IMG/VR virus record: IMGVR_UViG_2563366933_000008 | From: a virus | Lineage: Duplodnaviria; Heunggongvirae; Uroviricota; Caudoviricetes | DNA: 51,815 nt | Strand: one strand, 5' to 3' | Shown here: one piece after another, positions 44,001 to 47,000 of the stretch | Position numbering within the stretch: position 1 is the stretch's first letter | Layout of the letters: each line of letters begins with the position of its first letter | Program-made: the position numbers

Positions 44001-47000
44001 ATTTCATGCCGTGTCAGAAGTGATGTTGAAAATATAAGGTGTCGTTTAAGATTTGAACATCATGATGGTTCTACTTACACTTTTTTGGGAGATGCTTACC
44101 TCAATTTATCAACACTTGTAATTGATAAAACTGGTGGTGCAGCAAATCGTATTATTGCAAAGGCTGTAAAAGATGAGGCTACTGGTTGGATTTTCTATCA
44201 GGCTACAATTACTGCACTAGATACAGAGAGCATGATTGGTGCGATGGTTCAATACGCTCCAGTAAAAGGTTCAGACACAGCATCTGGAGACTATCTGGAT
44301 ATCGCAACTCCACAAGTGGAAGGTGGATCAAGTGCTTCGTCATTTATTGTAACTGATACAACTGCAAGCACCCGCGCAAGCGATATAGTTACAGTTCCAA
44401 TTAAGAATAATCTTTATAGTCTTCCTTTTACAGTTCTGGTTGAGGTTCATAAAAACTGGAATAAAACACCAAATGCAGCACCGCGTGTTTTTGATACCGG
44501 CGGTCATCAAACCGGAGCGGCTATTATTCTTGGCTTCGGTTCTTCAGCAGATTACGACGGATTTCCTTATTGCGATATTGGAGGAGCTAACAGACGGGTA
44601 AACGAAAACGCATCGCTTGAAAAAATGGTTATGGGGATGCGTGTAAAGTCAGATCAGTCTACGTGCTCAGTAAGTAACGGGCGTATATCCAGCGAAACAA
44701 AAACCACATGGTCTTATATTCAGAACACCGCAATTATCCGTATTGGAGGCCAGACTACAGCCGGGTTACGTCATTTATTTGGTCATGTCAGGAATTTCAG
44801 AATATGGCACAAGGCATTGACTGATGCTCAGGTGGGGGAGTTAATCTAATGAAAGATTTAACACTCAAATTTGTCGACAGGGCCGACTTTTCGGCTTTTA
44901 TGGAGAGTATCGGCTATTATGATGATGAGTCGATGCAGGATGATATTCTTATTGACGTGATAGGTAACGTGTACAAAGAAACCGGAGAACTTACCGAAGA
45001 TGGCGAGCCGGTATGTGTTAAGGAAGACGGATATTTTGTAAACGTGCGCATCATTAATGATGCAAAAAAATCGTCAATATTCGATAAATACGCGATTGTT
45101 GTTGAGCATCAACTTCGTGGCTGGATGTGAGGGAGACAAATGGCTACATCGACAGTAATTCCTGAAGACATCAAAACGCTAAAATCCGACGTTAGCAAAT
45201 TAAAAAACGATCAAGGAAGCTACGCAACAAAATCTTATGTAGACAATAAAACAACATGGAATGGTTATTGCAATGTAATCTATGATCAAAAAACATTGCC
45301 AACAACTGGAACTATATTCAGCGGTAAGCTGCATTTGTCAAATAAGACTGGTGAAACGGAAAACGCTTATAGTGACATATATACCAGAAAAAATATTGAT
45401 GGTACTAAAGATACAATGACGAGGATCGTCACACATAACGGGACAAAAGGTATCTTTTGGGACTTTAGTGATCTTTACGGAGGAACTTTAATTTTCCCTG
45501 GCACTGCTGGTTATTTGAAAATGGGTAAGTGCCTCATGTCCTATGGGGATCGTGTAGATAATGCCCTGATTAAATTTGATTATACAGACACATTACAGAT
45601 CAAATATGCTAATCACGGGTCGACCATGACATTAAACACACAGGGAACCGCTTATGCTGGTGTTACTGCTAAATTGTGGGGCAACTCTAGCCGTCCGGTT
45701 GTTTATGAAGTCGGTGTTGATGGTGGCGCTTATATGTTCTATGCGCAGAAAAATACCGATAACACCTATATGTTAAGCGTTAATGGTGCATGTCATGCCA
45801 CCGCATTTAACCAGCATTCCGACCGGGATCTGAAAGACAACATTCAGGTGATCGATAATGCAACCGACCGCATCCGTAAAATGAACGGCTATACATACAC
45901 GCTTAAAGAAAACGGTATGCCCTATGCTGGTGTCATTGCACAGGAAGCTCTGGAAGCAATCCCAGAAGTTGTAGGTTCCGCAGTGAAATATCAGGACGGT
46001 GCAAGCGGATCGGAAGGTGAAGAAGGTGAACGTTATTACACAGTAGATTATTCTGGTATTACTGGCTTGCTTGTTCAGGTAGCCAGAGAGTCAGACGACA
46101 GAATAACAGCACTGGAAGAAGAAAACGCAGAATTAAAACAAAGATTATCTGCAATTGAGGCGGCGCTTGCGTCTAAATAATATTAAGGGGCCGAGCGCCC
46201 CGTTTTATTGGGTGGGATGAAAATGGATATAACACCTTTCCTTCATGCACTTTGTGCTGTGGCTGCGCAGATACTGGTTGGTCTTTTTACCGGAAACTGG
46301 GCTTACGGAGCGATAGCCGGTTGTACGTTCTTCATTGCGCGTGAACACACCCAGGCAGAATATCGCTGGATTGAAATGTTCGGGCATGGCAAGCGGATTA
46401 ACATGCCGTGGTGGGGCGGTTTTGATCTACGTGCATGGGATATGGCAAGCATGATGGATTTTGCTGTGCCGGTGGTGGCGTGTCTGCTGGTCTGGCTGTT
46501 GGTTAATCGCTAAAGTCATCATATCAGGGGAACACAGCAGGGGCTGGTTTTACATAAAAAAGCCCACCAGTGAGGTGGGCAACAGGAATGATTAATTATC
46601 TCAAAGAGAAACATCATGTTTCTCTTTGCAACTTCTAACATGAAAATGTGGAGAAATAATGGAGTTTATATTAACTGGTGATTATGCAACCAACTTCTTA
46701 TGCAAAACAATATAGTTATTTATACCTGACTGGTCTTATGCATACACCTAAACAGGTGTATTACGTAATGAAACAGACTGGCGAATATGTTTGAGCAAAC
46801 TCCACTGAACCGCAGACGTTATGGTCATGTTGCATAGTGTTTTGGAATATAAAGAATTATATATGAGTTCGCTGTTTGTAACCTGAAAAACAATAACGAA
46901 TGTTATAATAAACTTGTTTGTTGTGCTGCTTTCACATTTTCTCATTAATCTTACCAGTAATATTTTTGTTGCTTTGTTGTTTCTGTTTTTTTATAAAAAA

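Follow-up and report, generated by a model that had tools for sequence, protein, structure and literature searches.

The DNA analysed here, called the window below, is the whole 51,815-nucleotide (nt) stretch of one strand recorded as IMGVR_UViG_2563366933_000008, which belongs to a lambda-like, temperate Escherichia coli prophage with cytolethal distending toxin (cdt) genes. Behind the side-tail-fibre gene stf lie two open reading frames (ORFs), which encode proteins of 93 and 346 amino acids (aa). The initial annotation had located both within 44849-46180, had described the smaller product as acidic, and had proposed that the larger one, ending in a self-cleaving peptidase S74 chaperone domain, takes the place of a Tfa assembly protein and serves as a second receptor-binding protein or as a fibre tip maturing by autoproteolysis. 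Both ORFs are indeed found at these positions on the + strand, and together with stf they form one three-gene side-tail-fibre cassette (42474-46180). As argued below, the 346-aa protein is probably a self-chaperoned distal receptor-binding fibre that rides on the proximal fibre Stf. The features of the cassette are as follows.

42474-44849, + strand: stf, proximal side tail fibre, 791 aa from the ATG at 42474
43536-44846, + strand: C-terminal module of Stf, ~440 aa (aa ~355-791), the constant part of the cassette
44490-44711, + strand: Stf aa 673-746, candidate docking region for the distal fibre, picked out by an identity contrast
44849-45130, + strand: 93-aa acidic protein, phrog_1361, with the stop codon TGA at 45128-45130
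45140-46180, + strand: 346-aa protein, probable distal fibre and receptor-binding protein with a C-terminal S74 chaperone (phrog_4563, Pfam S74)
45140-45184, + strand: conserved N-terminal, putative docking peptide MATSTVIPEDIKTLK (aa 1-15) with invariant residues
45245-45499, + strand: hypervariable beta-rich region (aa ~36-120), likely the receptor-contacting part
45647-45817, + strand: aa ~170-226, a T4 gp34-like fibre domain immediately preceding the predicted cleavage site
45818-46177, + strand: S74 intramolecular chaperone domain (aa 227-346), placed by the Pfam match and the dyad
46187-46208, + strand: terminator-like hairpin GGGGCCGAGCGCCCC, then GTTTTATT, closing the fibre cassette

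The earliest possible start of stf is the GTG at 42468, giving 793 aa, and the ATG at 42474 gives 791 aa. The solved 94-aa chain 9e7m ('Tail fiber protein') aligns with the Stf N-terminus, beginning at residue 3 of the ORF read from the GTG; this residue is encoded by the ATG at 42474. The stop codon of stf (TAA, 44847-44849) shares one base with the start codon of the 93-aa ORF (TAATG), and the 93-aa gene is translationally coupled to stf. Between the stop codon of the 93-aa gene and the ATG of the 346-aa gene (45140) lies a nine-base spacer with the Shine-Dalgarno-like sequence GGGAG, and the hairpin behind the 346-aa gene spans 46187-46201, followed by a T-run. Wherever the distal gene of a cassette is complete, it shares its frame with the small gene and lies 9-12 nt from it. 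Programmed readthrough from the small gene into the distal gene was considered and ruled out, since the stop codon is TGA or TAA depending on the cassette and the spacer holds a Shine-Dalgarno sequence; the shared frame thus reflects conserved spacing. A search with lambda Tfa by tblastn over the whole window gave no significant match (best E 0.39), and a Pfam scan of the four proteins in the fibre stretch returned no Tfa family, in agreement with the proposed lack of an assembly gene.

S74 chaperones are known to work in cis, on that part of their own chain which precedes the cleavage site, as in endoNF and T5 pb1. The S74 domain of the 346-aa protein had been suspected from the strings DRDLKDNIQ and AQEALEAIPEVV, both of which are confirmed in the translation. 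A hidden Markov model search recovered it as Pfam PF13884 Peptidase_S74 (E 5.7e-14), at 52.6 bits against a gathering cut-off of 22 bits, with aa 227-278 covering profile positions 1-57 of 58. The domain opens with S-D-R-D-L-K, i.e., with the Ser227-x4-Lys232 spacing of the catalytic dyad (codons 45818-45820 and 45833-45835, respectively). The conserved Ser-Lys dyad that the initial annotation had called for is borne out by alignment, since five cassettes from four phage groups carry both residues without exception, and their conservation across 39 homologues is at least 90%. Among solved sequences, the nearest to this part is that of the phage S16 gp37 tip with its chaperone (6f45), with which the chaperone part aligns, and an AlphaFold2 (AF2) model places a C-terminal helix at aa 305-344 at pLDDT (predicted local distance difference test) values of 82-92. 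The whole protein matches phrog_4563, 'tail fiber protein' (5.3e-209). In T5 pb1, the C-terminal 133 residues are the released chaperone (PMC4690869). By analogy with this protein, cleavage is predicted to occur before Ser227, which would yield a 226-aa mature fibre of 24.9 kDa and a freed chaperone of 13.1 kDa; the 346-aa protein probably undergoes autoproteolysis.

The part upstream of the chaperone domain combines a nearly constant start with a highly variable body. The S74 partners of such cassettes share the N-terminal consensus M(A/V)T.T.IP.DI, in which M1, T3, T5, I7, P8, D10 and I11 are invariant in the five cassettes, although the bodies have neither length nor sequence in common. A further 80 loci, tunus and a Dhillonvirus have the same peptide start. 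A search with the peptide returned 120 phage records, and in the listed matches that cover its first residues it stands just 3' of the small gene. Behind the peptide, the AF2 model shows a short helix at aa 9-25 and then beta strands at aa 58-147 (block pLDDT 62-76). A comparison of 17 distinct 346-aa proteins showed variation at 13-15 of 20 sites per block in aa 41-100, against 1 of 20 in aa 1-20 and 1-3 of 20 per block in aa 221-280, and aa ~36-120 are the likely receptor-contacting part. Directly before Ser227, the profile of the 39 homologues matches the proximal subunit of the T4 long tail fibre, gp34 (4uxe, 5nxf and 5nxh; E 2e-9 to 8e-9), and the motif WG..R..V.EVG....FY.Q.N is common to both. 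In sequence comparison, the putative docking peptide, the hypervariable middle and the conserved chaperone domain support the proposed second receptor-binding protein or autoproteolytically maturing fibre tip.

Pairwise ratios of nonsynonymous to synonymous substitution rates (dN/dS) against other alleles are 0.13-0.35 for the 346-aa gene. The same protein sequence stands at the head of a database cluster with 906 members, named 'tail fiber domain-containing protein', and 1132 of 5426 complete E. coli genomes contain a match to the two-gene region (93-aa plus 346-aa), which in 502 genomes extends over at least 80% of the region. These three results show that the 346-aa gene works and is not a remnant.

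Two main distal alleles occur in E. coli prophages behind nearly the same small protein (IMG/VR loci L006-L084), one of 346 aa and one of 234 aa; the latter consists of a coiled coil, a short tip and the S74 domain, and the break between the two alleles falls within the first ~20 codons. Shortened distal copies of 157, 189 and 227 aa are present in some prophages (L012, L036 and L083 among the noted loci).

The proximal fibre and the 93-aa protein

Stf consists of a lambda-type N-terminal anchor (Pfam phage_tail_N PF08400, 1.8e-67), a repetitive shaft rich in Ala, Ser and Thr, and a C-terminal lectin-like module, and phrog_1419 spans its full length. The shaft (window 42800-43530) consists of a long series of such repeats (SETNAK.SETAAK...), which give several long spurious ORFs on both strands and which align with similar repeats of IrisVonRoten Gp22 and of a phage depolymerase. 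No S74 match was found in Stf by the Pfam scan. The C-terminal module matches the NCBIfam family GTA_spike_fiber (2.6e-17), and its profile matches the head spike fiber Rcc01080 of the Rhodobacter gene transfer agent (PDB 6tb9, E 1.9e-13); a Laminin_G-like stretch at the end of the module is weak (Laminin_G_3, E 0.0025, under the cut-off). The module is probably glycan-binding and a platform for the distal fibre.

Across the siphovirus cassettes, the C-terminal 440 aa of the first fibre are 61-93% identical. The module of Stf itself is 65-93% identical to its counterparts in T5-like, Queuovirinae, Drexlerviridae and Dhillonvirus phages and 45-49% identical to that of an rV5-like fibre. The N-terminal anchor of the first fibre differs by phage family, whereas the C-terminal module is constant. 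Within the module, one stretch behaves differently from the rest in phage 21, whose Stf has no distal partner. Stf aa 360-672 are 47-75% identical to the phage 21 protein, whereas aa 673-746 are only 16-23% identical to it, compared with 78-83% among the cassettes that have a distal gene. This contrast, which comes from one independent lineage, leads us to propose aa 673-746 as a possible socket for the distal fibre.

The 93-aa protein, assigned to phrog_1361, is acidic as originally described (isoelectric point 4.31; 20 Asp and Glu versus 10 Lys and Arg), and its gene shows pairwise dN/dS values of 0.22-0.39 against other alleles. It matched no Pfam or NCBIfam family and showed no similarity to Tfa profiles. 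Sequence comparison with solved structures gave chance matches only, e.g., to GAPDH (E 0.05), and matches of ~25 aa each to three giant Ig-repeat proteins without a coherent Pfam family are probably due to chance or composition. The family is narrow and, in a set of 1.84 billion proteins, comprises 50 clusters at 50% identity. The small protein was found in 183 phage records, where, among the matches listed, it adjoins a tail or tail-fibre gene in all annotated records. The literature on phage 9g, on Cronobacter phages CRES7/9 and on the phiNP RBP family contains no data on this small protein.

In phage 21, the gene order is Stf, small protein and membrane protein, with no distal S74 gene. In the rV5-like phage CarlMeissner, the small protein follows a 1479-aa fibre carrying the same C-terminal module, again with no adjacent distal gene. 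The small protein is thus kept where the distal gene is missing and therefore belongs with the C-terminal module of Stf and not with the S74 fibre; it is probably a dedicated partner of this module. What it does there may be tentatively described: it could well be an assembly factor or chaperone for the lectin-like module, and, with somewhat less confidence, it might be a small structural piece of the joint. A broader proposal, also tentative, is that it is a universal joint or assembly factor that, with the Stf module and the 15-residue peptide, would form a plug-and-socket for the exchange of distal fibres among unrelated families, namely lambdoid phages, Drexlerviridae, Dhillonvirus, Queuovirinae, T5-like phages and perhaps rV5-like phages.

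Distribution and related fibre systems

The same three-gene order, i.e., a fibre with the ~440-aa lectin-like module, a ~92-aa protein and an S74 fibre whose body varies, was identified in Nonagvirus ESCO3, Tequintavirus FGS017 and IrisVonRoten, Seuratvirus KurtStettler, Warwickvirus tunus, a Dhillonvirus and other lambdoid prophages, one of which lies beside dusA in strain E4. It is also present in all 80 of the IMG/VR loci that reach beyond the small gene. The third proteins measure 234, 245, 346, 351, 510, 574 and 581 aa and have unrelated bodies, and all six of those tested from other cassettes scored above the Pfam S74 cut-off. The 510-aa distal fibre of KurtStettler (Bas22; L003 5575-7107) carries within its chaperone region a ~170-residue extension, absent from the other cassettes, that is first Gly-rich, then Cys-rich and ends in PTPPTSCC. 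The cassette is a widespread, mobile and swappable host-recognition unit, already common in coliphages, and as such an ordinary find; the arrangement is not peculiar to the phage in the window, and its T5-like version has already been modelled as a proximal and a distal fibre (PMC11990801).

This T5-like version is that of IrisVonRoten (Bas32, BASEL collection 2025), in which the published model has the S74 fibre Gp24 joined to Gp22, the proximal fibre with a galectin-like domain at its C-terminus, and the body of Gp24 is described as combining gp12-like and T5-like receptor-binding domains in a 'T-shape' (PMC11990801). The small protein between them, Gp23, is not discussed in that study. The order and spacing of the three genes are as in the window, and three traits of the Gp22/Gp23/Gp24 type are present, namely the ~440-aa module, an overlapping phrog_1361 gene and an S74 fibre whose consensus peptide starts 9-12 nt behind the small gene. 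Aligned over 742 residues, Stf and Gp22 are 54% identical (~65% in the last 440 aa), the 93-aa protein is 37% identical to Gp23, and the 346-aa protein has the N-terminal peptide, the chaperone and the S74 dyad in common with Gp24. However, the anchor in the window is the lambda Stf N-terminal domain, whereas that of IrisVonRoten is of the T5 pb1 type, and the window element, unlike IrisVonRoten, is a temperate prophage with cdt genes. The distal protein is also shorter (346 versus 574 aa), as it lacks an insertion of ~230 residues corresponding to the gp12-like first domain. No gp12-type match to the 346-aa protein was found in the searches, and a two-domain, T-shaped distal fibre was not recovered; the missing insertion makes the 346-aa protein a single-headed variant. 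The window cassette is thus the lambdoid version of a known, widespread lateral-fibre cassette.

A second related arrangement, the branched two-protein lateral fibre of DT57C with its S74 domains, was established genetically (PMC4728585). In DT57C and DT571/2, LtfB reaches the virion only via LtfA, through a short conserved N-terminus (PMC4728585, PMC10713586), and the likeness to the window extends to the two fibre proteins and the self-cleaving S74 chaperones. However, LtfA has its own S74 domain and receptor-binding tip, both of which are absent from Stf, so that the window does not have the DT57C type of organisation; moreover, the DT57C paper describes no small intervening gene.

The S74 domains of endosialidase endoNF (K1F), T5 pb1 and S16 gp37 resemble that of the 346-aa protein in Pfam family, S-x4-K dyad, C-terminal position and helical tail, whereas its mature part would be only 226 residues long and lacks its own anchor domain. 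Lambda itself is similar in the position of the fibre gene behind J and in the N-terminal anchor domain of Stf. In contrast to lambda Stf with Tfa, and to T4 gp37 with gp38/gp57A, no Tfa homologue is found in the window, Stf ends in a lectin-like module and not in a gp37-like tip, and folding of the distal part would be left to a cis chaperone. Phage 21 shares the Stf architecture, the small protein (92 aa; ~52% identity in the clade) and the downstream membrane protein, but lacks a distal S74 gene and has a divergent Stf in aa 673-746.

Proposed attachment of the distal fibre and its alternatives

A constant socket and an equally constant 15-residue plug, together with a head that varies and, on the other protein, an anchor specific to the phage family, make up the signature of a distal fibre carried by a proximal one. 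In addition, the Shine-Dalgarno sequence and terminator, the dN/dS values and the variation in aa 36-120 point to a working receptor-binding protein. In the assembly that we consider probable, the lambda-type N-terminal domain of Stf would fix the proximal fibre to the tail tip, and aa 1-15 of the distal fibre would plug onto the C-terminal region of Stf (possibly aa 673-746) or onto Stf together with the 93-aa protein. The region of aa ~36-120 would then contact the receptor, possibly a surface glycan such as O-antigen, and the 346-aa protein would be the main variable receptor-binding protein. Its S74 domain (aa 227-346) would drive trimerisation in cis and afterwards cut itself off via Ser227/Lys232, leaving the 226-residue mature fibre. 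No Tfa would be needed, because folding would be self-chaperoned. The physical docking of the distal fibre on Stf is what the conserved peptide and module suggest.

Several observations weigh against this assembly. The candidate docking region comes from a single contrast (phage 21), which the rV5-like fibre partly contradicts, as this fibre has no adjacent distal gene and yet keeps 47-64% identity in the stretch corresponding to Stf aa 673-746. The attachment of Gp24 to Gp22 in the BASEL work is itself a prediction, and no informative structural relative of the small protein was found. Furthermore, the short alleles (234/245 aa) would have a mature part of ~115-119 residues, which is small for a receptor-binding fibre.

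The names given to the third gene in ESCO3 and KurtStettler ('endosialidase chaperone' and 'putative lateral tail fiber chaperone') raise another explanation, in which the 346-aa protein would be only a chaperone acting in trans on Stf and would stay outside the virion. Stf without an S74 domain, the lack of Tfa in the window and the short alleles, which hold little beyond the coiled coil and the chaperone, all fit such a role. It is nevertheless unlikely, as S74 chaperones such as those of endoNF and T5 pb1 (PMC4690869) are known to work in cis, and as the part upstream of Ser227 contains a T4 gp34-like fibre domain and is the most variable region. Moreover, the T5-like cassettes have an upstream body of ~460 residues, with receptor-binding domains in Gp24 (PMC11990801), and phage 21 has a C-terminal Stf module of the same type without an S74 gene.

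The 346-aa protein might also be an independent second fibre, binding the tail tip directly (J or the attachment site of Stf) and not riding on Stf, since it is encoded by a separate gene with its own start and its contact with Stf is putative. We regard this arrangement as improbable, too. The same N-terminal peptide occurs in lambdoid phages, Drexlerviridae, Dhillonvirus, Queuovirinae and T5-like phages despite their differing proximal-fibre anchors, the sole constant neighbours are the C-terminal module of Stf and the small protein, and a 15-residue anchor with a short helix is too small for a family-specific tail adaptor. The remaining explanation, a non-functional or dispensable C-terminal piece that recombination left behind from an ancestral Stf of full length, could draw on the truncated copies and on the 1210-aa phrog_6578, which matches both the N-terminal part of Stf and the C-terminal half of the 346-aa protein and so shows that single-chain fibres with such a tip exist, but it is very improbable given the gene's own Shine-Dalgarno sequence and ATG, its dN/dS values, the 906-member cluster with an identical protein, and a gene start conserved across families that include lytic phages, which carry little junk.

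The O-antigen or capsule types that a siphovirus can penetrate are determined by its side or lateral tail fibres. On a cdt-carrying prophage, the cassette helps to set the strains that the prophage can reach. If the distal fibre is indeed carried on Stf, the conserved socket, the 15-residue plug and the self-chaperoned head would also offer a straightforward means of retargeting delivery particles based on lambda with no need for a matching Tfa.

Flanking genes

The cassette is flanked by the following features.

39000-42413, + strand: J gene, upstream of stf
42434-42453, + strand: strong terminator-like hairpin (8 pairs plus a T-run) between J and stf
46208-46513, + strand: 101-aa membrane protein, phrog_1443, downstream of the 346-aa gene
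46918-49126, + strand: cytolethal distending toxin genes cdtA, cdtB and cdtC, immediately downstream of the cassette
49196-50680, - strand: alpha/beta-hydrolase with a TAP-like C-terminal domain, at the window end
50865-51815, - strand: omptin-family outer-membrane protease, the ORF running to the last base of the window

The cdt genes are toxin cargo at the end of the late operon. Their Pfam matches are CDtoxinA (1.8e-52), Exo_endo_phos (6.9e-11) and CDtoxinA (3e-36), and the GC content of the region is ~0.42, compared with 0.54-0.61 in the J region. A Lom query against the whole window returned nothing significant, whereas lom is present in the strain E4 prophage with the same cassette. At the position matching the hairpin between J and stf, the phage 21 record has an annotated terminator.

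Homologues of the 101-aa membrane protein stand directly 3' of the small gene in phage 21 (L091 3921-4214) and in phage 4A7 (L085 4792-5085). Compared with these two phages, the S74 gene resembles an insert separating the small gene from the membrane-protein gene. In phage 4A7 (L085, Lambda_4A7, 1917-4333), stf is split just 5' of the small gene by three 'mobile element protein' genes of an insertion sequence.

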